A DNA stretch of 64,000 nucleotides from Escherichia coli (GTDB taxonomy: Bacteria; Pseudomonadota; Gammaproteobacteria; Enterobacterales; Enterobacteriaceae): assembly GCF_003334305.1 (NCBI RefSeq), contig NZ_QOWS01000003.1, one strand, 5' to 3'. Positions within the stretch are counted from its first letter, which is position 1; each line of letters begins with the position of its first letter. The position numbers and the translations under genes were made by a program. The notes under the pieces are model-generated. The model was not told the origin of the DNA, searched no databases, and worked only from the letters and a program-made list of their open reading frames with translations. Below, piece by piece: positions 13,652-44,464 of the stretch.

Positions 13652-14824
13652 TTAAGCCGTTTCAAACGTTCCATTCACGCAGGCTTTGCCGTCTTTGACC
13701 ATCAGTTTGCCGCGAGCGTATACCTGCTCAATGCGCAGTTCTGGCGTCATGACCAGCAAGTCAGCATCATTGCCTGGCAGAATTTCGCCTTTCCCGGTCA
13801 GGTTAAGGAAACCGGCTACGCTACTGGTGAGCGGGCGCAGGGCATCGCTGATACTGAAATCATAGTCTTTGACCAGCACCTGCACGGTTTCCAGCAACGT
13901 TTCAAAACCGGCAACACCGATATGGGTTAAATTCCCTTCGTCATCGAAGAACGGCTGGCTACCGTTGCCGTCGGAGCTGAGGGTGACGCGTGCCAGCGGA
14001 ATACCCGCCTGAACGGCGCGGGCAATACCTTCGGCAGGGGCGACCGGTTCGTCAATGCTGCTGGTGATATCGATAGTGCCGCCTTTGCGCGCGAACTCCA
14101 GCGCCTGCTCAAACAACGGAACGTTGCGGTTAACGTGGGTCGGCAGCAACTTGCTGATCGGCACATCGCAGTTTTCCAGCAGGTCATAGACAGGCTGTAA
14201 CGCCTTTTTGCTGTCGCCCATGTGGAACACGGTGACGCCAGGTTTACCGCCGAGCAAACCGCCAACGCGGGATTCCGCCGCCATATTAGCCAGGTGATAA
14301 ACGTCCGGTGCGGCAGAACGGTGATCAGAGATGGCGCATTTCACGCCAATCACACGATCGATAATCGCCACGTCTTTTTCCACGGAACCTGTAATGGTGC
14401 GGGAAGGGACATGATAAGCGCCGGTCAGCATCCAGGCGCTGATGCCTTCTTCATTGAGCGCACGGGTCTTGGCGAGCAGGGATTCCGGGTGGCGAGAGAT
14501 AGAGTCGGTGCCCAGCAGACCAACCACTGACGTGACGCCCGCTTCCGTCAGGCGACTTAGCGCCACTTCTGGCGTGCGCGTCGTGGGACCTGCTTCGCCG
14601 CCACCACCAATCAAATGGACGTGTTGATCAATAAAACCAGGACAGAGGATCTGCCCGCTGAGATCGACAACCGTGCAGTCCGGTACAATGTCAGAAGGGA
14701 TATTGCTGGCAACGGCGATAATTTTGCCGTTAGCGACGAGGACATCGCAAATTCCCCGATCTTCCGGCGCATACAAATGCGCTCCCTGCAGCAGGGTAAA
14801 ACCGGCTGCGGTATAATCAATCAT
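13652..14824 (-). CDS. iadA: Isoaspartyl dipeptidase
   Basis: 390-aa ORF; amidohydrolase-superfamily features (HVHLIGGGGEAG metal-binding region); recognised IadA. Confidence 0.9.
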   Translation of the reverse strand: MIDYTAAGFTLLQGAHLYAPEDRGICDVLVANGKIIAVASNIPSDIVPDCTVVDLSGQILCPGFIDQHVHLIGGGGEAGPTTRTPEVALSRLTEAGVTSVVGLLGTDSISRHPESLLAKTRALNEEGISAWMLTGAYHVPSRTITGSVEKDVAIIDRVIGVKCAISDHRSAAPDVYHLANMAAESRVGGLLGGKPGVTVFHMGDSKKALQPVYDLLENCDVPISKLLPTHVNRNVPLFEQALEFARKGGTIDITSSIDEPVAPAEGIARAVQAGIPLARVTLSSDGNGSQPFFDDEGNLTHIGVAGFETLLETVQVLVKDYDFSISDALRPLTSSVAGFLNLTGKGEILPGNDADLLVMTPELRIEQVYARGKLMVKDGKACVNGTFETA

Positions 14825-14836
14825 GGTAACTCCTTG

Positions 14837-15298
14837 TTAAACAATAAGCTGCATAACCCAGATCGACAGCAATGCGTTAATCACGCAGACCGTAATGATA
14901 TGCGGGTAATATTTGGCATTCACTTCGGCTGTCCCCAGGCAGCGACCGACATTTTGCACCGGGTTGCCCATTAAATACATCGCGGGCAGTAAAACGGTGA
15001 CATCGTGACCGGTTAATGCGCCGGCGGTCGCCAGACTGGCGGCAACACCGACTGCGCCGCCCATACTCATTAATGCGGCTAAAAGGACGGTTGCCGCTTC
15101 ACCGGGTAATCCCCACAGCGCCATTACGGGTTCACAGATATGCCCCACCCAGTCGAGCAGGCCGGTAATTTTCAGCGCCTGAATGATGACAAACGCCATC
15201 ACCACGTTTGGCAGCAGGTTGGTCGTGGCGATAGTAAAGCCACGGCGCGCGCCATCGATAAACATATCCATGACGTTTTTGCGGACCTGAGTTGTCAT
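14837..15298 (-). CDS. yjiG: Inner-membrane protein YjiG (nucleoside-recognition/SpmB-like)
   Basis: 153-aa hydrophobic ORF directly downstream of iadA; 4-nt overlap with yjiH suggests translational coupling. Confidence 0.8.
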   Translation of the reverse strand: MTTQVRKNVMDMFIDGARRGFTIATTNLLPNVVMAFVIIQALKITGLLDWVGHICEPVMALWGLPGEAATVLLAALMSMGGAVGVAASLATAGALTGHDVTVLLPAMYLMGNPVQNVGRCLGTAEVNAKYYPHIITVCVINALLSIWVMQLIV

Positions 15299-15978
15299 GC
15301 TTGCGCTCCTTGCGTTGGGTTGCGACGTTCTTCGAAGTTAAGCCAGACGCGCAAAATGTTGGCTCCGACAAATTTAAACACCAGGATGACGGCTAAAGGT
15401 ACGATTACGGACGTGCCCAGAAAGGCGAACACCGCGACGCCGGAAGAGAAGTAGTTGGTGATGATGGCGCTACCGCTGGTTTGATATGCGGCGAAAATCA
15501 CTTTATCGCGTTCGGTAATTTCCCCTTCCTGCGCCAGCTCTTTGGTCATACCGGCGGCGGCATCAGTGTTTTGCAGGTTAGCGATCAGCGCCAGCGAGCA
15601 GATCCCTGGAATGCCCAACAACGGTTTTAGCACAGGCGTCATTAACTGCTGCGCGGCGCGTAATCCACCAAGACCATCGGTAATTGAAATAATCCCCAGA
15701 GAGAGAATGACTGACGGTGCCAGCTCCAGCGCAAAGAGAAAGCCATCTTTAGCCCCCGCGCCACCCGCCCCGCGAAATGAGGTGGTGGCTCCATTCGCAC
15801 CAGGCAGTTGCCCAAACGATCCGTTCAGAACGGAAAAATCAAAAACGCGCCACCAGCTGTCTGTCCCGGAAAAAACTCCGGAAAAAAAGATTATGGTGAG
15901 AAAAAAAGCCAGATACCCTTTAATGCCCACTTTTTCTGTCGCCAGCTCCCCGGCTACAGCATCCCCTTGTTGTGTCAT
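15295..15978 (-). CDS. yjiH: Inner-membrane protein YjiH (nucleoside-recognition/SpmA-like)
   Basis: Hydrophobic ORF 15295..15990; start assigned to the second Met (MTQQGD...), giving about 227 aa; start position uncertain by 12 nt. Confidence 0.75.
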   Translation of the reverse strand: MTQQGDAVAGELATEKVGIKGYLAFFLTIIFFSGVFSGTDSWWRVFDFSVLNGSFGQLPGANGATTSFRGAGGAGAKDGFLFALELAPSVILSLGIISITDGLGGLRAAQQLMTPVLKPLLGIPGICSLALIANLQNTDAAAGMTKELAQEGEITERDKVIFAAYQTSGSAIITNYFSSGVAVFAFLGTSVIVPLAVILVFKFVGANILRVWLNFEERRNPTQGAQA

Positions 15979-16227
15979 AACAATCCCCATTGTTTTTTTG
16001 TGTTTGTGTGTTGCTTGAGCCAGGAAAATTCCTGGAGCTGAAAAACCTTATCAGCCATGTGGGTATGGGGAAAATGCAAGTATGTTTCTTGCTATGCGTT
16101 TTTTGCATAGCGGAAAAATTACGCTGTGTAGAAAAGGCTCTGCGCAGGATTGAGTTGCAGAAAATTCATAAACCCAGTGACAATGACATCAGTAAATAAA
16201 AACAGAAAATCCAGGGACGAAAACGCG

Positions 16228-16782
16228 ATGGCAAAGTACAACGAAAAAGAGTTGGCGGATACGAGCAAGTTTTTAAGTTTTGTCCTCCGACACAAACCGG
16301 AGGCGATTGGTATCGTACTTGACCGTGAAGGATGGGCGGATATCGATAAGCTCATACTTTGTGCCCAAAAAGCGGGCAAGCGGTTAACCCGTGCATTGCT
16401 GGATACTGTGGTTGCCACCAGCGATAAAAAGCGTTTTAGTCATTCCAGTGATGGTAGGTGCATCCGCGCGGTTCAGGGGCATTCGACTTCGCAGGTCGCC
16501 ATTTCCTTTGCCGAAAAAACACCGCCACAGTTTCTCTACCACGGTACGGCAAGCCGTTTCCTTGACGAGATAAAAAAACAGGGGCTGATTGCAGGGGAGC
16601 GTCATTACGTACATCTCTCTGCTGATGAAGCAACGGCACGCAAAGTGGGAGCAAGACACGGATCGCCGGTTATCTTAACCGTCAAAGCACAGGAAATGGC
16701 GAAACGAGGCATCCCTTTCTGGCAAGCGGAAAACGGGGTCTGGCTGACATCAACGGTTGCTGTTGAGTTTCTTGAGTGGTAA
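16228..16782 (+). CDS. kptA: RNA 2'-phosphotransferase (Tpt1/KptA family)
   Basis: 184 aa from [29 protein letters not shown]; recognised KptA. Earlier in-frame Met codons in the 210-aa ORF are rejected. Confidence 0.85.
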
Positions 16783-16794
16783 GGGAAACACTCC

Positions 16795-17973
16795 TCATGA
16801 AGTGACCACTTGCAGCTTAAATAATTGTACTGTGCTGATAAGCGCAGCAATAAACAACGCCGCCGCGCCGCAGAGAGTGGCGCCGGCAAGCGCCGATGTT
16901 CCATTGCCGAGCATACTGGTCAGCGCCGGGCCGAGGATTTGTCCAATGCCGTAAATGAGCGTCACAAAGCCTAAAAGATTGAGATTTCCCGGAACGCTCA
17001 GTTGGCGGGCGATAGTCATCACCAGAGATGTCGTGCCCATAAAGGTACCGCCAAAACCGATACTACTAATGATAAGCAAGAGAGGAGAGTCGCTGGCGAG
17101 AGTAAGCAGCACACTGATAGCCTGCACCAGCAAATTCGCCGTCAGGCAAGGCAAAGCCCCCCAACGTTTTGCTGCCCATAGCCAGCCAAAGCAGCCTGGC
17201 ACAATTGATAAGCCGACTAACGTCCAGAGATGGGCGGTTAACAATGGTGAGCCTGCATCTTTCGCCATGAGCGGCAGGTAAGTCGCGACGATGATATAAC
17301 CAAATCCCGCAAGGCCGTACAGAATAGCCAGTAACCACCAGCTCATTATCTGTTGCTCCGTTTTTGCCAATGGCATTGGTGCGATGGCGTGTTTTTTCGA
17401 GGGCATTAAAAGCGTAAGTGCAATCAGCATCATGCCAGAAAGCGCCCCGGCGCCTTGCCATAACGTTTGCGAGGAGAAGGCAAAATGCAGGCCTGCCAGA
17501 ACATATTCGTTGCCCAGTGCAATGCCAATGCCAACGCCAGAAAACAAAGCTGCCAGCACAAAAGGATGGCGCGTGTGCTGCATAATCAGCGTCGAACCAA
17601 AAATCAGCATACCGGCGCTGGCGACACCCGCCAGGAAGCGAATCAATAACACCAGAATAAATGGCGGCAACCATGCCATTGCGAGGATCAACAACCCGCT
17701 CGCCAGGGCAGAAACCAACAGTAATGGGCGCAGGCGCGACGGCTGGTGAAATGCGCCAAACGAAAATAGCAGACTGCCAGCCAGATACCCCGCATAGTTG
17801 CCGCTGGCAATCCACGAGAGCTGGCTAAATGAAAACGCCCCTTCCGCCATCATGACGGGCAACATAGGCGTATAAAGGAAGCGACCTAATCCCATACCTA
17901 AGGTCAGAACCAGCATCCCGAAAAGCGCGGTGCTGAAAGAAAAGCGTTCTACGGGATGCGAGGACGAAGGCAT
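16795..17973 (-). CDS. yjiJ: MFS-type transporter YjiJ
   Basis: 392-aa polytopic membrane ORF; recognised YjiJ; convergent with kptA. Confidence 0.85.
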
Positions 17974-18040
17974 GTTTAACCTTGTATGTCATTTTTGTTG
18001 TTAACAAGTTAATAACAAAAAGGTGAAATATGCCAGCCTG

Positions 18041-19048
<1,008 letters not shown>

Positions 19049-23817: not shown

Positions 23818-24283
23818 AACAAACAACTCCTTGTCCGGAGAACCCCAACGGGGAAAACGAAATTCAATACCGTCGGTAATGACGAAAGGCAGGCGAGAAG
23901 GACAAATGTACTGAATTTCATGTAATCAACCACACTGCCTGTGAACACACAGACAGAGAAATACCTTCTGACTCCAGGTCAGAATGTATAACGATTACAA
24001 ATAGTCATCAGCACATTACACCTCTTTAATTGATGGGTTGCATAGAAAATATACACCTTAAGTGTAATTAAAATTTGCGGTTAATCAAAAGAGCGCGGTG
24101 GAAAGGGGAATATCTGCCGGGTACAGGAAATGTAAAACGCGAGCCTGTTTCCGGAAAAATGTATCGTTTGCAGAGGAACACAAATAGCCTGGAAAGCGCC
24201 TCGGGGAACGAGAAATTGCCGGGTGAGAATGGTTTTGTTAGTCGCTACAGTCGGGCCATCTTATCTACAGGTGACGGATCGCC

Positions 24284-25228
24284 ATGACAAACTTCACAAC
24301 CAGCACGCCGCATGACGCATTATTTAAATCCTTTCTCACGCACCCTGACACCGCGCGGGATTTTATGGAGATCCACTTACCCAAAGATTTACGTGAACTG
24401 TGCGATCTCGACAGCTTAAAACTGGAATCCGCCAGCTTCGTCGATGAAAAATTGCGGGCGCTACACTCCGATATTCTGTGGTCGGTAAAGACCCGTGAAG
24501 GTGATGGTTATATTTACGTAGTGATTGAACATCAGAGCCGCGAGGATATCCATATGGCCTTTCGCCTGATGCGATATTCCATGGCGGTGATGCAGCGCCA
24601 TATCGAGCATGATAAACGCCGGCCGCTACCGCTGGTCATCCCGATGCTGTTTTATCACGGTAGCCGTAGTCCTTATCCCTGGTCCCTGTGCTGGCTGGAC
24701 GAATTTGCTGACCCGACCACCGCACGGAAGCTTTATACCGCAGCGTTCCCGCTGGTGGATGTCACTGTCGTGCCAGACGACGAGATTGTGCAGCACCGCA
24801 GAGTCGCCCTGTTGGAGTTGATCCAAAAGCATATTCGCCAGCGCGATCTGATGGGGCTTATCGATCAACTGGTAATATTACTGGTTACAGAGTGTGCTAA
24901 TGACAGCCAGATAACTGCGCTGTTAAATTACATTTTACTGACTGGCGATGAAGCGCGTTTTAAGAAGTTTATCAGCGAACTTACCCGTCGAATGCCACAA
25001 CACAGGGAGCGAATAATGACGATTGCAGAGCGAATTTATAATGATGGATGGCTGTTGGGGATGGAAAAGGGGAAAGAAGAAGGGGAACAACGCCTCCTTA
25101 GATTGTTGTTGCAGAATGGGGCAGATCCTGAATGGATACAAAAGATTACCGGACTTTCGACAGAGCAAATGCAGGCATTAGAGCAGCCCTTGCCTGAAAT
25201 CAAGCGCGATCCATGGATCGAATACTAA
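24284..25228 (+). CDS. rpnD: Recombination-promoting nuclease RpnD (YjiP/YjiQ), apparently intact
   Basis: 314-aa uninterrupted ORF; PD-(D/E)XK-like N-terminal region and C-terminal repeats characteristic of the Rpn (transposase_31-like) family. Confidence 0.75.
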
Positions 25229-25255
25229 TCAGAGACGGATGACAAACGCAAAGCT

Positions 25256-25351
25256 GCCTGATGCGCTACGCTTATCAGACCTACATTTCCTCTGCAATCT
25301 ATTGAATTTGCGCGGTTTGTAGGCCGGATAAGGCGTTCACGCCGCATCCGG
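25256..25351. repeat. BIME (two REP palindromes)
   Basis: gcctgatgcgctacgcttatcagacctac and gtttgtaggccggataaggcgttcacgccgcatccgg between convergent rpnD and yjiR. Confidence 0.6.
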
Positions 25352-25469
25352 TATGAACGAAGCACACTTTGCCTAAGCCATGCTGGAACGTGGCGATGAC
25401 CCTGCAAAGATACAACGAGTTACAGGCGATTCGTGAGAGGAAATCAGGTGCTTCGCCACTAATTCGAAT

Positions 25470-26882
25470 TTATTCCATTGCCCGATACACGGCCTCGCCA
25501 ATTTGCTTTAGTGCTTCGCGATAGGTTTCGCTGAGCGGCAAAGCGCAGTTGATGCGTAGACAATTACGGTATTTGCCGGAAGCCGAGAAAATCGAGCCTG
25601 CTGCCACCTGGATATTCATGCGGCACAGCTGCCGCGCAACGCAGACCATATCGACCTGTTCAGGCAATTCTATCCACAGTAAAAATCCGCCTTTCGGGCG
25701 CGTAATACAGATTTCGCAGGGAAAATATTCCCGTATCCAGCAGGTATAAAGCGCCAAATTGCGCTGATAGCTCTGCCGCATCCGCCGGATATGGCGATGA
25801 TAGTGACCTTCCAGCACAAACGTTGCCGCCGCCATTTGCGTGGACGGCACATTAAAGCTGCTGATGGCGTATTTCATATGCATCAGTTTATCGTGATAAC
25901 GCCCCGGTGCGACCCAACCCACGCGCAGGCCTGGAGCAATACTTTTACTGAACGAGCTGCACAACAACACTCGCCCGTCGATATCCCATGAATGGATGGT
26001 CCGCGGGCGCGGATACTCCGTTGCCAGTTCGCCGTAGACATCATCTTCAAAAATCACAATATCATGACGCTGAGCGAGAGAGAGAACGGCCCGTTTGCGT
26101 GCGTCCGGCATAATAAATCCCAGCGGATTATTACAGTTTGGCACCAGAATGATGCCTTTAATCGGCCACTGTTCCAGCGCCAGTTCCAGTGCTTCAACGC
26201 TGATGCCAGTTTCTGGATCGGTTGGGATTTCAATCACTTTCACGCCCATGCCTCGCAGCATCTGCATCGAACCGTAATAACAGGGAGATTCGACCGCGAC
26301 AATATCGCCCGGTTTACACACCGCCATTAACGCCAGCGACATCGAGTTATGGCAGCCGCTGGTGATGATGATGTCATCGGCGGTGACCACCGAGCCGCTG
26401 TCGAGCATCAGGCGGGCAATCTGCTCCCGCAACACTCGCTGACCGGCTAACAAGTCATAACCGAGAACGGTTTGCAGATTATGCTGCACCACCCGGCTTA
26501 GCTCACGCCACAGCGGTTTCAGGCTGGGCGTTTCGACATCCGGCGTGCTTTTGCTTAACGGAACAATGGAATTGTCGCTATGCGCCTCCAGCATATCCAG
26601 CACCTGATCCCACTGGGTAATTTCCACCGGGCGCTGCACCGGACGCGTCATCGGCGGTACAGGCGGCTGGGCTTTACGTTGTGCGACAAAATAACCCGAA
26701 CGCGGCTGCGGAGTGATGAGCCTCATCGTTTCCAGCGTCTGATACGCCTGTTGCACGGTGCTGATGCTGACGCCGTGCTCCTGACTTAAGCTGCGCACCG
26801 ACGGCAATTTCTCCCCGTGACGATACAGCCCTTGCTCAATCCGCTCGGCAAGTAGAGTCGCCAGATGTTGATAACGCGTCAT
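25470..26882 (-). CDS. yjiR: MocR-type regulator (GntR HTH fused to aminotransferase domain)
   Basis: 470-aa ORF; N-terminal GntR-like HTH (SVRSLSQEHGVSISTVQQAYQTLE) plus class-I aminotransferase-like body. Confidence 0.85.
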   Translation of the reverse strand: MTRYQHLATLLAERIEQGLYRHGEKLPSVRSLSQEHGVSISTVQQAYQTLETMRLITPQPRSGYFVAQRKAQPPVPPMTRPVQRPVEITQWDQVLDMLEAHSDNSIVPLSKSTPDVETPSLKPLWRELSRVVQHNLQTVLGYDLLAGQRVLREQIARLMLDSGSVVTADDIIITSGCHNSMSLALMAVCKPGDIVAVESPCYYGSMQMLRGMGVKVIEIPTDPETGISVEALELALEQWPIKGIILVPNCNNPLGFIMPDARKRAVLSLAQRHDIVIFEDDVYGELATEYPRPRTIHSWDIDGRVLLCSSFSKSIAPGLRVGWVAPGRYHDKLMHMKYAISSFNVPSTQMAAATFVLEGHYHRHIRRMRQSYQRNLALYTCWIREYFPCEICITRPKGGFLLWIELPEQVDMVCVARQLCRMNIQVAAGSIFSASGKYRNCLRINCALPLSETYREALKQIGEAVYRAME

Positions 26883-27058
26883 GCTGTATTCCTTATTTGG
26901 CCCATACAGAAAGAAAAACCGGTACAGATGAGGCTAAAAAACCGGATGCAGATGCTGTTTTAACCTGTCTGTATGTTAAATAAAACTAATATTTGCATCT
27001 GTATTGTGAACTGCCAGAAGGCGGATGATGAAGCCTCTGAAAGATGAGGAGGCAGCAG

Positions 27059-27223
27059 ATGGAATTTCACGAAAACAAAGCCAAAACGCCGTTTATCAGA
27101 CTTGTGCAACTCTGGCATGCGGTGAGGCGTTGGCGGCGGCAAATGCAGACCCGACGAGTGTTACAGCAGATGAGTGATGAACGGTTGAGGGATATTGGGT
27201 TACGCAGGGAGGATGTGGAGTGA
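27059..27223 (+). CDS. yjiS: Small DUF1127 protein YjiS
   Basis: 54-aa ORF MEFHENKAKTPFIRLVQLWHAVRRWRRQMQTRRVLQQMSDERLRDIGLRREDVE; shorter than the ORF-track cutoff; GGAGG RBS about 8 nt upstream. Confidence 0.7.
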   Translation: MEFHENKAKTPFIRLVQLWHAVRRWRRQMQTRRVLQQMSDERLRDIGLRREDVE

Positions 27224-27574
27224 ACTATGGGCGGCGTGTTGGCAAATGCTGCCTGTCTGCATTCAAAATTGCTACAAAATCCAACCATAAAAGTCGTTTA
27301 CAACATATTTTTCTGATTTACATACAGATAATGACCTGAGCTGTCTCTCTGGGGGTCATCATCTATGCGTCCGGGGGATCTGTCACAAAAAGGAATAGAA
27401 CAAAATCATCAGCGGTGAATAAAGCGATTCGTTTTAGATCACATTAATGAAATTTTTGTATCAAAAATTAGTTATCGCGCTCACAGTTCATAATGAAACA
27501 ATTCTCTGCAAATAGATAACCGAAGCTTCGTTGCTAGTATCAATTCGCTAATTATACACCTGCCAGAGGATACA

Positions 27575-30115
27575 ATGAAAAATAGAAATCGTATGATCGT
27601 GAACTGTGTTACTGCTTCCCTGATGTATTATTGGAGCTTACCTGCACTGGCTGAGCAGTCGTCAAGTGAGATAAAGATTGTTCGCGATGAATACGGCATG
27701 CCGCATATTTATGCCAATGATACATGGCACCTATTTTATGGCTATGGCTATGTAGTAGCACAAGATCGCCTTTTTCAGATGGAAATGGCACGTCGCAGTA
27801 CTCAAGGGACTGTCGCGGAAGTGCTTGGCAAAGATTTTGTGAAATTTGATAAAGATATCCGTCGTAACTACTGGCCGGATGCTATCCGGGCGCAAATTGC
27901 TGCCCTTTCCCCAGAGGATATGTCCATTCTGCAAGGCTACGCTGATGGAATGAATGCCTGGATTGATAAGGTAAATACCAATCCAGAGACGCTCTTACCA
28001 AAACAGTTTAATACATTTGGCTTTACTCCTAAGCGCTGGGAACCGTTTGATGTCGCGATGATATTTGTGGGCACCATGGCAAACCGCTTCTCTGATAGCA
28101 CTAGCGAAATTGATAATCTGGCACTGCTAACGGCTTTAAAAGATAAATATGGTGTATCACAAGGCATGGCGGTATTTAATCAGTTGAAATGGCTGGTAAA
28201 CCCATCAGCGCCAACCACTATTGCCGTACAAGAGAGTAACTACCCACTTAAATTTAATCAGCAAAACTCGCAAACAGCAGCTCTGTTGCCACGCTACGAT
28301 TTACCTGCACCAATGCTTGACCGACCAGCAAAAGGGGCGGATGGCGCACTGCTGGCGTTAACAGCAGGGAAGAACCGGGAAACTATTGCTGCACAATTTG
28401 CACAGGGTGGTGCCAATGGTCTGGCGGGGTATCCAACGACCAGCAATATGTGGGTGATCGGCAAAAGCAAAGCCCAGGATGCGAAAGCAATCATGGTAAA
28501 TGGTCCGCAGTTTGGCTGGTATGCGCCTGCGTATACTTATGGTATTGGTCTGCACGGTGCTGGTTATGATGTCACTGGCAATACACCATTTGCCTATCCT
28601 GGGCTGGTTTTTGGTCATAATGGTGTGATTTCCTGGGGATCAACGGCAGGTTTCGGCGATGATGTCGATATTTTTGCTGAACGGCTGTCGGCAGAGAAAC
28701 CAGGCTACTACTTGCATAATGGTAAGTGGGTGAAAATGTTAAGCCGTGAGGAAACCATTACGGTGAAAAATGGTCAGGCAGAGACCTTTACTGTCTGGCG
28801 TACGGTGCATGGCAACATTCTCCAAACTGACCAGACGACACAAACGGCTTACGCTAAATCCCGCGCATGGGATGGTAAAGAGGTGGCGTCTTTGCTGGCC
28901 TGGACTCATCAGATGAAGGCCAAAAATTGGCAGGAGTGGACACAGCAGGCAGCGAAACAAGCACTGACCATCAACTGGTACTATGCTGATGTAAACGGCA
29001 ATATTGGTTATGTTCATACTGGTGCTTATCCAGATCGTCAATCAGGCCATGATCCGCGATTACCCGTTCCTGGTACGGGAAAATGGGACTGGAAAGGGCT
29101 ATTGCCTTTTGAAATGAACCCTAAGGTGTATAACCCCCAGTCGGGATATATTGCTAACTGGAACAATTCTCCCCAAAAAGATTATCCCGCTTCAGATCTG
29201 TTTGCCTTTTTGTGGGGTGGTGCAGATCGCGTTACGGAGATCGACCGACTGCTTGAGCAAAAGCCACGCTTAACTGCTGATCAGGCATGGGATGTTATTC
29301 GCCAAACCAGTCGTCAGGATCTTAACCTGAGGCTTTTTTTACCTACTCTGCAAGCAGCGACATCTGGTTTGACACAGAGCGATCCGCGTCGTCAGTTGGT
29401 AGAAACATTAACACGTTGGGATGGCATCAATTTGCTTAATGATGATGGTAAAACCTGGCAGCAGCCAGGCTCTGCCATCCTGAACGTTTGGCTGACCAGT
29501 ATGTTGAAGCGTACCGTAGTGGCTGCCGTACCTATGCCATTTGATAAGTGGTACAGCGCCAGTGGCTACGAAACAACCCAGGACGGCCCAACTGGTTCGC
29601 TGAATATAAGTGTTGGAGCAAAAATTTTGTATGAGGCGGTGCAGGGAGACAAATCACCAATCCCACAGGCGGTTGATCTGTTTGCTGGGAAACCACAGCA
29701 GGAGGTTGTGTTGGCTGCGCTGGAAGATACCTGGGAGACTCTTTCCAAACGCTATGGCAATAATGTGAGTAACTGGAAAACACCTGCAATGGCCTTAACG
29801 TTCCGGGCAAATAATTTCTTTGGTGTACCGCAGGCCGCAGCGGAAGAAACGCGTCATCAGGCGGAGTATCAAAACCGTGGAACAGAAAACGATATGATTG
29901 TTTTCTCACCAACGACAAGCGATCGTCCTGTGCTTGCCTGGGATGTGGTCGCACCCGGTCAGAGTGGGTTTATTGCTCCCGATGGAACAGTTGATAAGCA
30001 CTATGAAGATCAGCTGAAAATGTACGAAAATTTTGGCCGTAAGTCGCTCTGGTTAACGAAGCAGGATGTGGAGGCGCATAAGGAGTCGCAGGAAGTGTTG
30101 CACGTTCAGAGATAA
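27575..30115 (+). CDS. pac: Penicillin G acylase precursor (Ntn-hydrolase; signal peptide, alpha subunit, spacer, beta subunit)
   Basis: 846-aa ORF; N-terminal signal peptide; [10 protein letters not shown] motif containing the N-terminal nucleophile Ser of the beta subunit; recognised E. coli penicillin G amidase. Confidence 0.9.
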
Positions 30116-30128
30116 TTAAGCCCGAAAG

Positions 30129-30155
30129 CCCTCATATTCTGGAGGAATATGAGGG
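30129..30155. terminator. Stem-loop between convergent pac and yjiA
   Basis: Inverted repeat ccctcatattc-tggag-gaatatgaggg, 14 nt after the pac stop. Confidence 0.45.
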
Positions 30156-30192
30156 TGATAAAGTCTCAGGTATTGTGATGTTGGAGGGCTGG

Positions 30193-31149
30193 TTACTTTT
30201 TGAGTCCCGCAAACGCCGCCCGAATCTCATCCTCCGGCAACTGAATCCCGATAAACACCATCGTGCTATGCGGTGTTTCATCGCCCCATGGCCTGTCCCA
30301 GTCGGCGCTGTAGAGGCGCTGGACGCCCTGGAACAGCAGGCGGTTAGGTTCGCCGTCAATCCACAGCATCCCTTTGTAACGCAGCAGTTTATCCGCCGAT
30401 TCCAGCAGCAGGTTTTCCATCACCCGGGAAACTTCGCTGATATCTACCGGGTAATCCAGTTCCACCACAATCGACGAAATATCGTTTTGTTTGTCCGCGA
30501 TAAAATGGAAACGCGGTTTGGTGCTGACGACGTTTTCTTCCAGCATAAAACCGTTGGTGTTGAACAGCAGACCCAGGTCGATGTCGCCGTGGGTGACGGT
30601 GTAGACCGGTGCACGGGCGTTGATGCGTGCCAGACGTTCACGCAGTTTTTCTGCTTCGCCTGCGACGTCGGTTTTAGTCAGCAGAATACGGTCGGCGTAG
30701 CCCACCTGGGACTGGGCGATGGTGAACTGGTTCATCTGCTCATCGGCATGTACCGCATCCACCAGCGCAATCACGCCGTCCAGCAGGTAGCGCTGGCATA
30801 AAATCTCATGGGAGAAAAAGGTTTGAATAATCGGGCCAGGATCGGCCATGCCGGTGCATTCAATGACCAGACGATCGAACTGAATATTGCCCTTGTCGAG
30901 ATTATCCAGCAGGTCGAGTAGCGCGTCCTCCAGCTCGTTGGAGCGCGAACAGCAGATGCAGCCGTTGGTCAGCGTTTTGATCTGCGTTGCGCGATCACCA
31001 ATCAATTGATCATCAACGGAGACTTCGCCGAATTCGTTTTCAATCACGGCAATCTTGTAGCCGTGTTGTTCATTAAGAATATGGCGCAGCAGGGTGGTTT
31101 TGCCCGCGCCTAAAAAACCGGTGAGTAGGGTAACTGCAATCGGGTTCAT
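30193..31149 (-). CDS. yjiA: COG0523-family GTPase (metal chaperone-like) YjiA
   Basis: 318 aa from MNPIAVTLLTGFLGAGKTTLL (P-loop); the 346-aa ORF-track start is rejected. Confidence 0.9.
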   Translation of the reverse strand: MNPIAVTLLTGFLGAGKTTLLRHILNEQHGYKIAVIENEFGEVSVDDQLIGDRATQIKTLTNGCICCSRSNELEDALLDLLDNLDKGNIQFDRLVIECTGMADPGPIIQTFFSHEILCQRYLLDGVIALVDAVHADEQMNQFTIAQSQVGYADRILLTKTDVAGEAEKLRERLARINARAPVYTVTHGDIDLGLLFNTNGFMLEENVVSTKPRFHFIADKQNDISSIVVELDYPVDISEVSRVMENLLLESADKLLRYKGMLWIDGEPNRLLFQGVQRLYSADWDRPWGDETPHSTMVFIGIQLPEDEIRAAFAGLKK

Positions 31150-31159
31150 GCTCTCTCCA

Positions 31160-31363
31160 TTAACAACAGCGCATACCGCCTTTACCATCGCCGCCGTAGC
31201 GTGCGTTCTGGCGTTCGCGGAAGAATTCTTCATAGCTCATGTACGGCTTGTCGGGATGGTTGGTCTTCATATGCTCGACGTAGTTGTCGTAGTCTGGAAT
31301 GCCAATCAACATCTTCGCCGCCTGGCCGAGATATTTTTTTGCCTGTCCTAAGTTACCAAACAT
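31160..31363 (-). CDS. yjiX: Small DUF466 protein YjiX
   Basis: 67-aa [31 protein letters not shown]...; sits between btsT and yjiA as in K-12. Confidence 0.85.
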
Positions 31364-31384
31364 AGTTCACTCTGATAAGAACAA

Positions 31385-31404
31385 AGCCCCGCCGAAGCGG
31401 GGCT
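31385..31404 (-). terminator. Rho-independent terminator after btsT
   Basis: agccccgc-cgaa-gcggggct hairpin 9 nt downstream of the btsT stop, followed on the minus strand by a T-rich run. Confidence 0.6.
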
Positions 31405-31412
31405 AAATACGG

Positions 31413-33563
31413 TTAGTGGTGCGAAGAGATCTTCACGCCGCCTTCCGGGATTGGAACGTACGGTGTTTCTTTGTCAGTACGTTTGTCGCTGTTACGCACA
31501 TTCAGCCAGGTTTTGAAACCGTAGAAGATGATGCTGTACACCACAATCAGGAACAGAATACTCAGGCCTGCGTTGGTGTAGTTGTTCACAACGATGTGGT
31601 TCATGTTGGCAATCTGCTGCGCCGTCAGGTCAGTACCGTTAGCAATCTTCTCTTTGTACTGGCTTGCCATGTAGAAGAAGCCTTCCATCTGCGGGTTGGT
31701 GCTGAACAGTTTCAGACCCAGCGCCCAGGTGGTGCAGATAAGCAGCCATACAGCCGGAACAACAGTTACCCAGATGTATTGGGTGCGCTTCATCTTAATC
31801 AGCACAACGGTGCCCAGTACCAGCGCTACGGCTGCCAGCATCTGGTTGGAAATACCGAACAGCGGCCACAGGCTCTTAACGCCGCCCAGCGGATCGACCA
31901 CGCCCTGATACAGCAGGTAGCCCCACAGACCCACACAGCCCGCAGTACCGATGATACCGGCAACCAGAGAGTCGGTTTTTTTCAGGAACGGGATGAAGTT
32001 ACCCAGCAGGTCTTGCAGCATAAAGCGGCCAGAACGAGTACCCGCATCCAGCGCGGTCAGGATGAACAGGGCTTCGAACAGAATACCGAAGTGATACCAG
32101 AAGCCCATGTCAGCCATCGGCAGCACTTTGTGGAACACGTGAGCGATACCTACCGCCAGCGTTGGCGCACCACCTGCACGGTTCAGGACAGAAGGCTCAC
32201 CAATGTCTTTCGCGGTTTGCAGGATCTGCTCTGGCGAAATCACGAAGCCCCAGGAGCTGACGGTCGCTGCCGCGTGTGCGGTAACGTCTTTCAGCTGCGC
32301 CATGATGATCGGCGCGTTCTCGCCACCCATTTCATGCAGGTTAGGCATGGTGATGCCAAGGCCAGCAGGCGGGGTATTCATCGCGAAGTAAAGACCCGGT
32401 TCGATGATGGACGCTGCAACCAGCGCCATAATCGCCACGAAGGACTCCATCAGCATTGCGCCGTAGCCAATGAAACGCGCGTCGGTTTCGTTAGCCAGCA
32501 GTTTTGGCGTCGTACCGGAAGAGATCAGCGCGTGGAAGCCAGATACCGCACCACAGGCGATGGTGATGAACAGGAACGGGAACAGAGCGCCTTTCCACAG
32601 CGGGCCAGTACCGTCAATGTACTGGGTCGTCGCAGGCATTTTCAGTTCCGGGTTCAGCACCACGATACCCAGCGCCAGGCCGACGATAACGCCGATTTTC
32701 AGGAAGGTTGCCAGATAGTCGCGCGGTGCGAGGATCAGCCACACCGGCAGCAGTGCGGAAACAAACGCATAGCCAATCAGCGCGAAGGTAATGGTGGTGT
32801 CTTTAAAGGTCAGTGCCGGACCCCAGTACGGATCGTGAGCAATCACGCCACCGAAGTAGATAGAGGCAACCAGCAGCACGATACCAATGACAGAGACTTC
32901 ACCCACACGCCCCGGACGGATAAAGCGCATGTAGATACCCATAAACAGCGCAATCGGTACGGTTGAGCAAACGGTGAAAACACCCCACGGGCTTTCGGCC
33001 AGGGCTTTAACCACAATCAGCGCCAGGACGGCAAGGATGATGATCATGATTAAGAAACAGCCAAACAGCGCGATAGTCCCCGGTACTGGTCCCATCTCTT
33101 CTTTGATCATCTCACCGAGAGATGCGCCGTTACGGCGAGAGGAGATAAACAGCACCATAAAGTCCTGTACCGCACCGGCCAGTACTACCCCCGCCAGCAG
33201 CCACAGCGTGCCAGGTAGGTAGCCCATCTGCGCGGCGAGAACCGGACCAACCAGCGGACCAGCACCGGCGATAGCGGCGAAGTGGTGACCAAACAACACG
33301 TAACGGTTGGTCGGAACATAGTTCAGACCGTCGTTGTTAATAACCGCAGGCGTCGCGCGCGTGGGGTCGAGTTTCATCACCTTCTGGGCGATGTACAGAC
33401 TGTAGTAGCGATAAGCCACCAGATACACCGACACAGAGGCGACCACGATCCACAGGGCGCTGACGTGCTCCCCCCGACGTAATGCAACTACCGCGAGGCA
33501 GAATGCACCGATGATTCCGAGAATCACCCAGGGTATGTGCTTGAATAGTTTTTTCGTATCCAT
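31413..33563 (-). CDS. btsT: Pyruvate/H+ symporter (CstA family) BtsT/YjiY
   Basis: 716 aa from MDTKKLFKHIPWVILG; polytopic CstA-like transporter; recognised YjiY. Confidence 0.9.
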   Translation of the reverse strand: MDTKKLFKHIPWVILGIIGAFCLAVVALRRGEHVSALWIVVASVSVYLVAYRYYSLYIAQKVMKLDPTRATPAVINNDGLNYVPTNRYVLFGHHFAAIAGAGPLVGPVLAAQMGYLPGTLWLLAGVVLAGAVQDFMVLFISSRRNGASLGEMIKEEMGPVPGTIALFGCFLIMIIILAVLALIVVKALAESPWGVFTVCSTVPIALFMGIYMRFIRPGRVGEVSVIGIVLLVASIYFGGVIAHDPYWGPALTFKDTTITFALIGYAFVSALLPVWLILAPRDYLATFLKIGVIVGLALGIVVLNPELKMPATTQYIDGTGPLWKGALFPFLFITIACGAVSGFHALISSGTTPKLLANETDARFIGYGAMLMESFVAIMALVAASIIEPGLYFAMNTPPAGLGITMPNLHEMGGENAPIIMAQLKDVTAHAAATVSSWGFVISPEQILQTAKDIGEPSVLNRAGGAPTLAVGIAHVFHKVLPMADMGFWYHFGILFEALFILTALDAGTRSGRFMLQDLLGNFIPFLKKTDSLVAGIIGTAGCVGLWGYLLYQGVVDPLGGVKSLWPLFGISNQMLAAVALVLGTVVLIKMKRTQYIWVTVVPAVWLLICTTWALGLKLFSTNPQMEGFFYMASQYKEKIANGTDLTAQQIANMNHIVVNNYTNAGLSILFLIVVYSIIFYGFKTWLNVRNSDKRTDKETPYVPIPEGGVKISSHH

Positions 33564-33949: not shown

Positions 33950-33955
33950 TGGAGC

Positions 33956-34468
33956 TTAAATCGCAGCTTCCATTTCCAGCATCACCGGATGGAAACGGCG
34001 TTTAAAGTAAATAAGTCCGTGACCTTCTGCACTGAGGATGATGTTTTTAATCTCCACCAGATACACCAGATGTGTGCCAATCGCCTGCACATCGCGGATC
34101 TCTCCTTCAAGACTGGCCAGCGAACCTTTCAGCACCGGCTGCGCCAGCGGACCTTTTTGCCAGCATGAGAGGCTAAAACGCTCTTCCATCGCCATGCCTG
34201 TCATGCCCGCGAAGTGGCGTGCCATCAGTTCCTGCTCATGGTTGAGGACGTTGACGCACAACTTACCGTTGCCCTGAAAAACCGGGTTCATCGCACTGTT
34301 GGCGTTAATGCACACCATCAGCGACGGTGGTGTATCCGTGACCGAGCAGACGGCCGTTGCCGTAATTCCGCATTGTCCGGCGTCGCCCTCGGTGGTGATA
34401 ATATTTACCGCTGCCGACAGGCTGGCCATTGCGTCACGAAAGCGCAGGCGTTGTTCATCTAATTGCAT
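33956..34468 (-). CDS. hpaC: 4-HPA 3-monooxygenase reductase component (flavin:NADH reductase)
   Basis: 170-aa ORF; recognised HpaC. Confidence 0.9.
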   Translation of the reverse strand: MQLDEQRLRFRDAMASLSAAVNIITTEGDAGQCGITATAVCSVTDTPPSLMVCINANSAMNPVFQGNGKLCVNVLNHEQELMARHFAGMTGMAMEERFSLSCWQKGPLAQPVLKGSLASLEGEIRDVQAIGTHLVYLVEIKNIILSAEGHGLIYFKRRFHPVMLEMEAAI

Positions 34469-34485
34469 CTTAACCTCCTGCTGCG

Positions 34486-36048
34486 TTATTTCAGCAGCTT
34501 ATCCAGCATGTTGATATCGTCGTTGTTGTGCAGGTGCGGCACAGTCCAGCCGTTCTGGTCGTATTCCGACAGGCAGCGATCAACCATCGCCATCATCTTG
34601 TCCATATTGCCGGAGCTTTGTGCCTGGCGCAGACACTGCAGGCGAATCTCATCCTGGCTACCGGAGTAGTTGATTTCATACAGTTCGTGACGACCACCAA
34701 ACTCGCTGCCAATGGCATCCCACATCAGTTTGAGGATCTTGATGCGCTGGACGTGATCCATACCGTTCGAACCGCGCACATACTTCGCCAGATACTGGTC
34801 GATCTGCGGATTGTTCAGGTCACGGGCACTGGAAGGGAGATAGATCAGGCCACTGGTAACGTTGCGTTCGATAATGTTTTTGATCTTCGCGTAGGCCATT
34901 GGTGCCAGTACGCGATAGGTTTGCAGTGCGGCATGATCCGGTAAATAAGCCCCGTTGACCCACGGCGTCGCTTCAGAACACATCGAGTCACTCAATGCCC
35001 AGAAGGTGTTGCGCCACGCCACCACTTCACCGAGATCGGCCTGCACACCACGGAACTCCAGGGTGCCGGTACATTCGAGTGATTTTTTCAGCAGTGCCGT
35101 AATGAAGTCGAGTTTCACTGCCAGGCGCACACAGGCTTGCAGCGGATACATACGGGCGAAACCGCCTTCCATCGTCCAGCGACGGCAGCGATCAAAATCG
35201 CGGTAGATCAGCACGTTTTCCCATGGGATCAGCACGTTATCCATCACCAGAATCGCATCGTTCTCATCGAAGCGGCTGGAGAGCGGGTAGTCGTACGGCG
35301 AGCCGGTAGCACCCGCGACCATCTCATAAGAGGCGCGGGAGATTAATTTCACGCCATCGGCATCCATTGGCGCAACGAACATCAGTGCGAAGTCCGGGTT
35401 TTCGCCCATTACTTGTGCCGAGCCGAAGCCAATCATGTTGTAGTGAGTCAGCGCCGAGTTGGTGGCAACCACTTTCGCACCGCTAACGATAATCCCGGCG
35501 TCAGTCTCTTTTTCCAGCTTGATGTAAACGTCTTTCACTTTATCGGTCGGCAAATGACGATCGATCGGTGGGTTAACAATCGCGTGGTTAAAGTAGAGGC
35601 CAGTTTCCTGAATACGGGTGTACCAGTTACGGGCGTTCTGCTCGAACTGACCGTAAAAGCCCGGATTCGCGCCCAGTGCGCAACCGAAAGCAGCTTTGTA
35701 GTCTGGGGTACGGCCCATCCAGCCATAGCTCAGGCGTGACCATTCAGCGATGGCGTCGCGTTGCTGGCGCAGGTCGTCGGCACTTTTCGCCACGCGGAAG
35801 AATTTATGGGTATAGCCGCCGCTGCCGGTGTCGGTGTTCCAACACAGAGAGTCCTGCATCTCCGGTTTGTGCAGCGCGTCGTACAGTTGGGCAACAGACG
35901 CTGCCGCATTACGAAATGCCGGATGAGTGGTGACGTCTTTCACTCGCTCGCCATAGATATAGATCTCGCGACCATCCTGCAGGCTTTTCAGATACTCTTC
36001 CCCGGTGAAAGGACGTTGGGTACTGGCGCGGAAATCTTCTGGTTTCAT
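34486..36048 (-). CDS. hpaB: 4-hydroxyphenylacetate 3-monooxygenase oxygenase component
   Basis: 520-aa ORF; recognised HpaB. Confidence 0.9.
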   Translation of the reverse strand: MKPEDFRASTQRPFTGEEYLKSLQDGREIYIYGERVKDVTTHPAFRNAAASVAQLYDALHKPEMQDSLCWNTDTGSGGYTHKFFRVAKSADDLRQQRDAIAEWSRLSYGWMGRTPDYKAAFGCALGANPGFYGQFEQNARNWYTRIQETGLYFNHAIVNPPIDRHLPTDKVKDVYIKLEKETDAGIIVSGAKVVATNSALTHYNMIGFGSAQVMGENPDFALMFVAPMDADGVKLISRASYEMVAGATGSPYDYPLSSRFDENDAILVMDNVLIPWENVLIYRDFDRCRRWTMEGGFARMYPLQACVRLAVKLDFITALLKKSLECTGTLEFRGVQADLGEVVAWRNTFWALSDSMCSEATPWVNGAYLPDHAALQTYRVLAPMAYAKIKNIIERNVTSGLIYLPSSARDLNNPQIDQYLAKYVRGSNGMDHVQRIKILKLMWDAIGSEFGGRHELYEINYSGSQDEIRLQCLRQAQSSGNMDKMMAMVDRCLSEYDQNGWTVPHLHNNDDINMLDKLLK

Positions 36049-36298
36049 GTCGACCTCTACAGTATTAATCGGAATACGATTGTTAATTTTGTGTGTTGTT
36101 TTTGTTATTTAATTGAAGCTTGCAGGGGCGATTACGGGAAGACACTTTTGGGACAATGGCTGGTACTTTTCAGGTCGGGTACGGTTTTGTGATCGAGGTC
36201 GCTTTTAGCGATTTTTAACGTTACTAAATCCCCTTGCTCCAGGCGGAGAAAGGGGAATAGCAGGTGGTGCCTGGTTTCCCGTTAAGGCTAAGGGATTT

Positions 36299-37189
36299 TC
36301 ACGTCACAGGTACTTTTTTGGCACGATAAGCACTGGGCGAGCAACCGACTAAGCGATTAAAAAAGCGCGCAAAATAAGCCGGATCTTTAAAACCGAGTTG
36401 CCAGGCAATATTGTTCACGGCGTTATCAGAAAACAGCAGCAGCCGCTTGGCTTCTCGTAGCTGCCTGTCGAAAATCAACCGTTTTGGCGGACGGTTGGCA
36501 AAGCGGCGGCAGATGTCCGTGAGTCGTGATTCGGTGATATGCAGTTCGTTAGCGTAATCCGGTACTGTCCAGTGCTGATGAAAATGGCTTTCAATCAGCA
36601 TATTAAAACGCTGGAACAGTTTTAATTCTCCGCGCATCCCGCTGGCGGCATGGTCGTCGAGTTTTGCATTACGCAGCAGTAGGGTGAACACTGCCTGTGC
36701 CAGTAGCGTCAGGGTGTGTTCCCGTCCAGGCAGTTGTTCCACCGATTCCCGCTCTATCAGTTGCCAATAGTGTTCCAGCGCCGCCAGTTCGTCGGGTTTA
36801 TCTGCCAGTGACAGGCAAATCCCCGGCAGGCCGAAGGTTTCCCGAGTGCCTGGATAAAGAACTTCCAGCAGGGGCCAGATCAGATCTTCCCGTACCGTCA
36901 ACACATGACCGTCGGCGTCAGACTCCGTAATAAACGCATGAGGTACTGACGGTGGCGTCAGGACAAACAGGGGCGCTTCCACCGAGTAGCGATGATCGTC
37001 AAGCTGTAGCTCAATCTGTCCGCTATTGAGGAAATGCATCTGAAAGTACTGTTCGTGGCGATGTGGCAGCATATGGCGGCCAAAAAAGGCCGCCATGCGG
37101 GCGAACGACTGATAATGCACATCGTCCGTGCCCAGGCTTTCATCGTACTCTTTGCTGATATCAATATTGGCAATCTGACGGTCACACAT
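36299..37189 (-). CDS. hpaA: AraC/XylS-family activator of hpaBC
   Basis: 296-aa ORF with C-terminal AraC-type HTH; cupin-like N-terminal region. Confidence 0.85.
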   Translation of the reverse strand: MCDRQIANIDISKEYDESLGTDDVHYQSFARMAAFFGRHMLPHRHEQYFQMHFLNSGQIELQLDDHRYSVEAPLFVLTPPSVPHAFITESDADGHVLTVREDLIWPLLEVLYPGTRETFGLPGICLSLADKPDELAALEHYWQLIERESVEQLPGREHTLTLLAQAVFTLLLRNAKLDDHAASGMRGELKLFQRFNMLIESHFHQHWTVPDYANELHITESRLTDICRRFANRPPKRLIFDRQLREAKRLLLFSDNAVNNIAWQLGFKDPAYFARFFNRLVGCSPSAYRAKKVPVT

Positions 37190-37198
37190 CGTCGTTCC

Positions 37199-38575: not shown

Positions 38576-38624
38576 TTTTCTTCCTCTAATGGGATTTTTG
38601 TAGGGTACGACAAGGTTTATGGCG

Positions 38625-38745
<121 letters not shown>

Positions 38746-38749
38746 GGCA

Positions 38750-39538
38750 TTAATACACGCCGGGCTTCACGGCGGTGGCCTGCGCACCAAACCGTGCTGC
38801 CAGCGCTTCAGCGGCGCGGGCGAGCAGGGTGGTGTCAACGCCGACGGCGACAAACAGCGCGCCCAGTTCCAGATAGCGTTTTGCCAGTTGCTCATTGGCG
38901 ATCAGGATCCCCGGCGCTTTGCCCGCTTCGCGGATCTGCACGATCGCCTGCTCAATGGCGGCCTGTACTTCCGGGTGCTGCGGATTACCGGCATAACCCA
39001 TATCGGCGCTCAGATCCGCCGGGCCGATAAACACGCCGTCGACCCCTTCCACGTCCAGAATCTGCGGTAAGTTCTTCATTGCCTCACGCGTTTCGATCTG
39101 CACCAGCACGCACATTTGATCGTTGGCTTTTTGCAGGTAATCAGGAATGCGATTCCAGCGCGAGGCACGGGCCAGCGCACTGCCCACACCGCGAATACCG
39201 GCGGGGGGATAACGGGTGGCGCGTACCGCTTCACGGGCTTCGTCAGCGTTTTGAACCATCGGCACCAGTAAGGTTTGTGTGCCGACGTCCAGCAGTTGTT
39301 TGATTTGCACCGGATCGTTCCACGACGGACGTACTACCGGCTGGCTGGGGTAGGGCGCAATCGCCTGTAGCTGGGTGAGCACGGTTTGCACGTTATTCGG
39401 CGCGTGCTCACCGTCGATCAATAACCAGTCGAATCCTGCTCCGGCCAGTAACTCTGCGCTGTAGCTGCTACTTAGCCCCAGCCATAATCCGATCTGCGGG
39501 CGGCCTGCTTTCAGCGCCGCTTTAAAACTGTTTTCCAT
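38750..39538 (-). CDS. hpaI: 2,4-dihydroxyhept-2-ene-1,7-dioate aldolase (HpcH/HpaI)
   Basis: 262 aa from [20 protein letters not shown]; the ORF-track 5' extension is rejected. Confidence 0.85.
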
Positions 39539-39548
39539 CGTTCTCTCC

Positions 39549-40352: not shown

Positions 40353-40419
40353 AGCGATATCCTGTGGCATTGCCGGATGCGGCTGCGCCTTATCATCCGG
40401 CCTGGAAGCTGGTGCAAAT

Positions 40420-40800: not shown

Positions 40801-40809
40801 GGTGGTTCC

Positions 40810-41661: not shown

Positions 41662-41662
41662 A

Positions 41663-44415: not shown

Positions 44416-44440
44416 TACCACTCCTCGGATTCGATCATTT

Positions 44441-44464
44441 TAATCATTAATATGTTAATGATTA
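44441..44464. promoter_or_regulatory. Perfect palindrome in the hpaG promoter region, probable HpaR (MarR-type) operator
   Basis: TAATCATTAA-TATG-TTAATGATTA, 26-50 nt upstream of the hpaG ATG; a partial copy (ATTAATGATTTT) occurs at about 44652..44667 near the hpaR start. Confidence 0.4.

Follow-up and report, generated by a model that had tools for sequence, protein, structure and literature searches.

The kptA gene and its surroundings

The 64-kb stretch of Escherichia coli DNA analysed here (hereafter the window), to which E. coli strain H15 is 99.98% identical over the whole length, carries on its plus strand an intact open reading frame running from an ATG at 16228 to a TAA ending at 16782 (184 codons plus stop). 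It encodes KptA, an NAD+-dependent RNA 2'-phosphotransferase of the Tpt1/KptA family. Downstream lies the MFS transporter gene yjiJ (16795-17973, minus strand), convergent with kptA, the stop codons of the two genes being separated by a spacer of 12 nt (16783-16794). On the other side, across an intergenic region of 249 nt (15979-16227) where divergent promoters are expected, lies the yjiH-yjiG-iadA operon (13652-15978, minus strand), which codes for two Gate-domain membrane proteins and an isoaspartyl dipeptidase. This arrangement, convergent with yjiJ and divergent from the operon, is the one described in the initial annotation and is correct.

Within the 249-nt region, only the yjiH-proximal part (around 15995-16111) is conserved by blastn in Salmonella (79.5% over 122 nt) and [Enterobacter] lignolyticus (88% over 68 nt), and since it is also conserved in genomes that have no kptA at this site, it belongs to the yjiH-yjiG-iadA side and not to kptA. 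One promoter-like site was identified just 5' of the kptA ATG (16183-16210), which is no more than shuffled controls give. A terminator scan fitted no convincing terminator into the 12-nt spacer towards yjiJ, and the sole match of an Rfam scan of 15000-18200 at a permissive threshold was at chance level (E = 0.79). The kptA gene stands alone and is probably transcribed on its own. Genes for potential partners in RNA repair or in the turnover of ADP-ribosylated products (RNA ligase, polynucleotide kinase-phosphatase, 2H phosphoesterase, Macro, Nudix or NADAR) do not lie beside it in E. coli; likewise, no kinase gene is annotated at the E. coli locus, and no ligase gene anywhere in the 64-kb window.

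The features of the Tpt1/KptA family are all found in the encoded protein, namely a full-length profile match, the catalytic tetrad, the HGT motif and a two-lobe alignment. It matches the NCBIfam equivalog NF002012 ('RNA 2'-phosphotransferase') with 425.4 bits, against a cut-off of 233 bits, residues 1-184 of 184 covering profile positions 1-184, as well as Pfam PF01885 (PTS_2-RNA, E = 1.1e-47). The closest solved relative is Runella Tpt1 (7kw8, E = 1.7e-43, residues 10-182 aligned), and the Clostridium thermocellum Tpt1 structures 6e3a and 6ede are also matched (E around 1.5e-33); judged from sequence alignment to 7kw8 and 6e3a, both lobes would be preserved almost without gaps (one single-residue gap). 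[quoted passage not shown] The HGT motif, as read from the translation, corresponds to His105-Gly106-Thr107 (16540-16548), a contact of the NAD+ ribose (PMC6333775). Alanine at any of the four tetrad positions abolishes the function of E. coli KptA (Sawaya 2005, as cited in PMC6097658).

The kptA genes annotated by RefSeq in several E. coli strains are 100% identical in DNA to that of the window. Compared with the K-12 gene (b4331, formerly yjiI), which has the same locus and gene order, nucleotide identity is 98.4%, 182 of 184 residues are identical, including the tetrad and the HGT motif, and the only substitutions are H72Y and I162L, so that there is no reason to expect an altered activity. 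The K-12 protein is reportedly the bacterial Tpt1 orthologue that was characterised by Spinelli, Steiger, Phizicky, Sawaya and Shuman, and it is for this protein that NAD+-dependent removal of internal RNA 2'-phosphates has been demonstrated by experiment. With profiles, structures, tetrad and motif all in agreement, the initial identification of the gene as kptA, a Tpt1 orthologue, is borne out, and we regard both this identity and the enzyme chemistry that goes with it as practically certain. The gene is thus an already known one, and the window adds nothing on the enzyme itself.

Gene context within and beyond Escherichia

The initial annotation proposed the neighbouring genes as a lead to the role of KptA, i.e., that kptA works with yjiH-yjiG-iadA or with yjiJ, whose substrates would explain it. 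Several observations are in line with this proposal: the genes are adjacent and their order is kept within Escherichia, a 'nucleoside recognition' (Gate) domain is found in YjiH as well as in YjiG, and the transcripts of kptA and yjiJ overlap, the pair being listed as a convergent overlapping ('excludon') pair (PMC12288877), which is the only published connection. The suggested check of synteny across Enterobacterales, however, showed that the linkage is not conserved across genera but limited to Escherichia and one close relative, represented by a Logan contig (L027), in a small sample of about a dozen non-E. coli loci collected protein by protein.

A cryptic-clade Escherichia genome (L002) displays a gene order identical to that of the window. 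In the Logan contig the order is hypT-iadA-yjiG-yjiH, then kptA, then yjiJ-yjiK-ytiA-yjiL-yjiM; identity to the window is 73% for KptA and 75-99% for these neighbours, KptA being more diverged than the adjacent iadA, yjiG, yjiH and yjiJ (84-99%) and about as diverged as yjiK and ytiA. In Salmonella enterica, yjiJ is followed by a gap of 871 nt and then by yjiH-yjiG-iadA-hypT; tblastn detected no trace of kptA in this gap, of which only the approximately 120 nt adjoining yjiH are conserved with the window. The yjiH-yjiG-iadA genes are also kept without kptA in [Enterobacter] lignolyticus and Citrobacter.

The reverse situation is found outside Escherichia, where the closest KptA homologues (57-66% identity) lie at eight loci, each in a different and unrelated context and without any of the E. 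coli neighbours. The gene follows a short-chain dehydrogenase in Leminorella, a SorC-type regulator in Superficieibacter and a small HTH gene near a contact-dependent inhibition locus in Limnobaculum; it stands beside a LysE exporter in Xenorhabdus and beside an amidohydrolase in Gilliamella, while Apibacter and a metagenome contig each display yet another context that differs from the rest. An RNA ligase, 2H, Macro, Nudix or kinase partner is absent at all eight of these loci, and no conserved neighbour of kptA was found in any context examined.

Even within E. coli the junction with yjiJ is not fixed, as in 644 of 5393 genomes (about 12%) the alignment stops exactly at the kptA stop codon (query position around 880), i.e., at the 12-nt spacer. 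In both break-point genomes inspected, the 5.2-kb inverse-autotransporter gene iatD lies between kptA and yjiJ; one of them codes for an intact KptA of 194 aa with 10 extra C-terminal residues, ending ...EFLEWSFMPAGVQKQ, and the other has a frameshifted kptA. In addition, an inspected strain of sequence type ST69 carries a frameshifted kptA, yet its YjiG and YjiH proteins are identical to those of strain H15. The synteny data therefore contradict a coupling of kptA to its neighbours, which we consider highly improbable: a functional partnership with iadA-yjiGH or yjiJ is not supported, and these genes say nothing about the substrate.

These results also bear on the origin of the gene. In our view kptA was inserted on its own before the E. 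coli radiation, entering this site in an ancestor of Escherichia, a gain specific to that lineage. A recent horizontal transfer was considered on the basis of base composition and rejected, kptA bearing no compositional signature; its GC content (50.6%) and GC3 (50.8%) match the host (window mean 51.4%), indicating that the acquisition is old.

Distribution, constraint and inactivation in E. coli

Complete E. coli genomes carry the kptA sequence almost without exception (5390 of 5426, or 99.3%). Among intact alleles, which differ by up to 7% at the DNA level, dN/dS is 0.08-0.09, indicative of purifying selection, and the catalytic residues are intact in divergent alleles as well as in the KptA of the window. 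Sequences on E. coli records labelled as plasmids were discounted as evidence that kptA is plasmid-borne, most of these records being 0.37-4.9 Mb in size and looking like mis-assigned chromosome; one further record is of 22 kb.

At the same time, -1 frameshifts at three poly-A tracts of the gene, fixed in their lineages, occur in at least 616 genomes (11%). Four frameshifts were probed, and the counts were obtained with short exact probes unable to seed on the wild-type run. Contraction of the A5 tract at 16426-16430 to A4, seen in the alignment of strain 2009C-4687, is fixed in 287 complete genomes, among which are O157 strains (exact 40-nt probe); contraction of the A6 tract at 16514-16519 to A5 occurs in 102 complete genomes with the allele of the EcPF14 or 'clone D i14' type; and contraction of the A7 tract at 16572-16578 to A6 is found both in an ST69-type allele (218 genomes) and in a K-12-like allele (9 genomes), all on the plus strand. 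The products of the A7 contraction are truncated at 119 aa, ending in ...EIKNKG in ST69 and in ...EIKNRG in the K-12-like case (P0052). The frameshift examples inspected are labelled 'frameshifted' by PGAP. Sequencing errors were considered as their source and rejected, since three of the variants are exactly common to 102-287 genomes from different laboratories, and one of them also corresponds to a large cluster of truncated proteins from independent assemblies. Further E. coli strains bear kptA deletions, and the whole kptA region is absent from the genome-reduced strain DGF-298.

Such a pattern could be read as that of a horizontally acquired relic, functionless in E. coli and slowly decaying. 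The gain in one lineage, a knockout without laboratory phenotype (PMC6333775), at least four independent frameshift events over at least 616 genomes together with the deletions, and the stronger divergence of KptA relative to its adjacent genes in the Logan contig would all be consistent with decay. The dN/dS value, however, reveals clear purifying selection among intact alleles and contradicts this reading. Moreover, about 88% of complete genomes are free of any of the four probed frameshifts at a locus that is almost universally retained, the catalytic residues have been preserved, and the host-like composition speaks for an old acquisition. We therefore regard a decaying relic as very unlikely. 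Purifying selection combined with repeated, lineage-fixed inactivation rather indicates a gene that is selected for and can be dispensed with under some conditions; kptA looks useful but conditionally dispensable. The presence, constraint and frameshift data are new but minor points.

Candidate substrates and comparison with known systems

E. coli KptA performs the same two-step NAD+-dependent 2'-phosphotransfer as yeast Tpt1, and complements a yeast tpt1-delta mutant in a manner dependent on Arg21, His22, Arg69 and Arg125, according to the account in PMC6097658. A trinucleotide with an internal 2'-phosphate is dephosphorylated by the enzyme, whereas removal of a terminal 2'-phosphate was undetectable (Steiger 2001, as cited in PMC6573784), and 2'-phospho-U47 installed on E. 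coli tRNA by the foreign kinase ArkI is erased by E. coli KptA in vivo (PMC9095486). However, E. coli has neither a Trl1-type ligase nor intron-containing tRNAs (PMC6333775, PMC10622864), nor does it possess ArkI or the 2'-phospho-U47 mark on its tRNAs (PMC10622864). The premise of the initial annotation that the host has no known pathway producing internal RNA 2'-phosphates thus agrees with the literature (PMC6333775, PMC10622864). The same holds for its view that the substrate is unassigned: a defined physiological substrate of E. coli KptA was looked for in the literature up to late 2025, and no paper assigning one was found, PMC6333775 (2019), PMC10622864 (2023) and PMC12621583 (November 2025) all leaving the matter unsettled. 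The role of bacterial KptA has been called a 'longstanding conundrum' (PMC6333775, 2019). Recombinant Tpt1 made in E. coli was purified with ADP-ribose-1''-phosphate bound (PMC6333775), which means that there is some endogenous phospho-substrate. The candidates raised in papers from 2023 to late 2025 are undiscovered RNAs with internal 2'-phosphates, NADP(H) and 5'-phosphate capping, and use of NADP(H) (PMC10622864) and of 5'-phosphate ends (PMC12678800, PMC6573784) has been reported for members of the Tpt1 family. These activities, like the erasure of 2'-phospho-U47, are later biochemistry that the initial annotation did not mention.

The removal of 2'-phosphates from RNA ranks first among these candidates, because E. 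coli KptA is efficient and specific for internal 2'-phosphates both in vitro and in vivo. In the mechanism that we favour, the 2'-phosphate of an internal RNA nucleotide attacks C1'' of NAD+, a step shown by others for E. coli KptA, and the enzyme would, without partners, erase or repair internal 2'-phosphates that RNAs sporadically gain. These RNAs would probably arise conditionally or from an exogenous source, as the population pattern suggests, and the gene would be useful enough for purifying selection to retain it, although many niches would allow its loss. Against this stand the facts that internal 2'-phosphorylated RNA has never been found in E. coli, that the endogenous substrate inferred from crystals may be NADP(H) and not RNA (PMC10622864), and that the genomic context gives no pointer to RNA metabolism. 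Taken as a whole, and including its RNA substrate, the statement that kptA encodes a known, stand-alone, active Tpt1-family enzyme that erases internal RNA 2'-phosphates is a tentative one, to which we give not quite an even chance.

The second-ranked possibility, which we regard as doubtful, is that what KptA really acts on in E. coli is the metabolite NADP(H) or a similar 2'-phospho-nucleotide, whose 2'-phosphate would be passed to NAD+. Archaeal Tpt1 enzymes convert both NADP+ and NADPH quantitatively, NADP+ occupies the RNA lobe exactly like the RNA nucleotide bearing the 2'-phosphate, and the authors of that work suggest that NADP(H) is the reason why organisms like E. coli have Tpt1 (PMC10622864). 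This would explain the crystal ligands, and a stand-alone kptA devoid of RNA-repair partners would suit a metabolite substrate. However, the activity was seen for archaeal enzymes only, at 20 uM enzyme over hours (PMC10622864), and no gene for a receptor or hydrolase of the cyclic product, ADP-ribose cyclic phosphate, lies near kptA. A role in NADP(H) homeostasis is further at odds with the lack of kptA at the syntenic site of Salmonella and relatives, with the fixed frameshifts in at least 11% of E. coli genomes and with the knockout that has no phenotype.

Ranked third, and improbable in our view, is a function in capping, whereby KptA would ADP-ribosylate RNA or DNA 5'-monophosphate ends in one step, as a reversible mark in stress or inter-organism conflict. 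Several Tpt1 enzymes, as well as Streptomyces coelicolor KptA and human TRPT1, modify 5'-phosphate ends in this way in vitro (PMC12678800, PMC6573784), but the activity is confined to a subset of the family: Runella Tpt1 and human Tpt1 were inactive in the assays of Munir et al., as summarised in PMC6573784, and the literature holds no report for E. coli KptA. Such capping would leave the cyclic-phosphate-derived crystal ligand unexplained (PMC10622864), and in none of the contexts examined does a Macro, NADAR or other reversing hydrolase lie beside kptA.

The first-ranked eraser role also agrees with the population pattern, since a gene gained in one lineage, kept under constraint and repeatedly lost is more in keeping with a conditional or conflict-related function than with core metabolism. 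A more specific version of RNA 2'-phosphate removal, which we consider a rather unlikely one, is that KptA serves as a conditional guard clearing host RNA of 2'-phosphates put on by a phage enzyme, by a toxin or by ligated ThpR-generated ends. If this were the case, the frameshifted lineages (O157-type, ST69-type and two others) would no longer meet the challenge, and these natural knock-outs, at least 11% of complete genomes, would be ready material for a substrate hunt.

The role of Tpt1 in bacteria and mammals, which do without tRNA splicing of the fungal type, has been a standing question since 1998, and its solution would expose either a hidden class of 2'-phosphorylated RNA or a new pathway of NAD+-derived metabolites. 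The window does not make the question of the KptA substrate more tractable. What the comparative results do provide is that the neighbouring genes are ruled out as a lead to the role of KptA, that the gain of kptA was particular to the Escherichia lineage, where selection has kept the gene, and that large lineages with a natural pseudogene, O157 and ST69 strains among them, are possible controls in a substrate hunt, a modest practical lead.

Members of the family also occur in phages, with KptA homologues of 40-46% identity in 98 phage genomes, mostly of jumbo phages of Erwinia, Klebsiella, Dickeya, Serratia and Yersinia, in addition to the Clostridioides difficile phiCD211 group. According to a published proposal, phage KptA contributes to the repair of tRNAs that host nucleases have cut (PMC9503650), and this set of genomes agrees with it. 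These proteins belong to the same family as E. coli KptA but have diverged too far for the E. coli gene to have come from them recently. The phage kptA neighbourhoods examined consist mostly of hypothetical or unannotated genes, and no partner was found among them; by PHROG assignment, a generic phosphohydrolase is encoded two genes away.

Among cellular systems, the archaeal ArkI/KptA pair, writer and eraser of tRNA 2'-phospho-U47, involves the same enzyme family, whereas E. coli has no ArkI orthologue (PMC10622864). Runella Tpt1 is a bona fide internal 2'-phosphotransferase that is idle on terminal phosphates, as E. coli KptA is on the available evidence; in contrast with E. coli kptA, which has no RNA-repair neighbour, the Runella gene lies in an RNA repair cluster (PMC6097658). 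Finally, Saccharomyces cerevisiae Tpt1, an example of the fungal and plant enzymes of tRNA splicing, and E. coli KptA share the fold family, the Arg-His-Arg-Arg tetrad and the two-step NAD+ chemistry. In yeast the Trl1 ligase makes the substrate of Tpt1, which is essential, whereas E. coli has no such ligase and kptA is dispensable; nevertheless, the yeast enzyme can be replaced in vivo by E. coli KptA (PMC6333775, PMC6097658).

Frameshifts and the 3' boundary of kptA

Within kptA (16228-16782, + strand) there are three poly-A tracts, and at every one of them some E. coli have a -1 frameshift that is fixed in the lineage: at 16426-16430 in 287 complete genomes, at 16514-16519 in 102, and at 16572-16578 in 218+9. 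The gene is therefore a pseudogene in at least 11% of complete E. coli genomes, O157 and ST69 strains being among those with frameshifts.

The downstream junction with yjiJ (16783-16794) is also variable, the alignment breaking exactly at the kptA stop codon in ~12% of E. coli genomes. In both of the break-point genomes inspected, kptA and yjiJ are separated by iatD, a 5.2-kb inverse-autotransporter gene (junction loci L025 8036-13277 and L026 8037-14613); one copy of iatD has a frameshift and the other an IS2 insertion. One of these two iatD genomes has an intact kptA that has gained a 10-residue C-terminal tail, while in the other kptA is frameshifted.

Haplotype depth and intergenic conservation at yjiH-kptA

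Across yjiH-kptA, dS reaches 0.2-0.27 between E. coli strains (this part of the window compared with L013, L015, L017 and L018), as deep as the divergence from a cryptic-clade Escherichia (L002). Despite this, the YjiG and YjiH proteins (14837-15978) are nearly invariant, with dN/dS <=0.02, a pattern that suggests the presence of old, recombining haplotypes here. In the yjiH-kptA intergenic region, the yjiH-proximal part (~15995-16111) is conserved, being 79.5% identical to Salmonella over 122 nt and 88% identical to [Enterobacter] lignolyticus over 68 nt. This segment matches no Rfam family; probably it serves the yjiH-yjiG-iadA operon as promoter or leader.

KptA outside Escherichia

Where Escherichia has kptA, in Salmonella enterica (L019 5130-6000) yjiJ and yjiH are separated by 871 nt in which no gene is called; the same contig lacks yjiK-ytiA-yjiL-yjiM, and yjiN directly adjoins yjiJ. 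KptA homologues that share 57-60% identity with E. coli KptA are encoded by two metagenome-assembled genomes from the bee gut, one labelled Apibacter (L004 6524-7066) and one labelled Gilliamella (L003 7784-8326), which belong to different phyla. This pair could reflect either horizontal transfer within that community or the assignment of a contig to the wrong genome.

Differences from K-12 elsewhere in the window

Between yjiS and yjiA this strain is without the "immigration control region" of K-12 (mcrBC, hsdRMS, mrr and symE), and a pseudogene of penicillin G acylase, broken by an internal stop codon, occupies its place (~27575-30115); positions in this region (~24280-33560) were mapped from the annotation of strain H15 (L001 28385-37664). 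The btsT-tsr interval holds a full set of genes for 4-hydroxyphenylacetate catabolism (hpaC, B, A, X, I, H, F, D, E, G and R), clustered at ~33950-45130 and likewise mapped from the H15 annotation (L001 38057 onward and L024 680-9514). In the K-12 gene list for this interval, yjiY is followed directly by tsr, without hpa genes.
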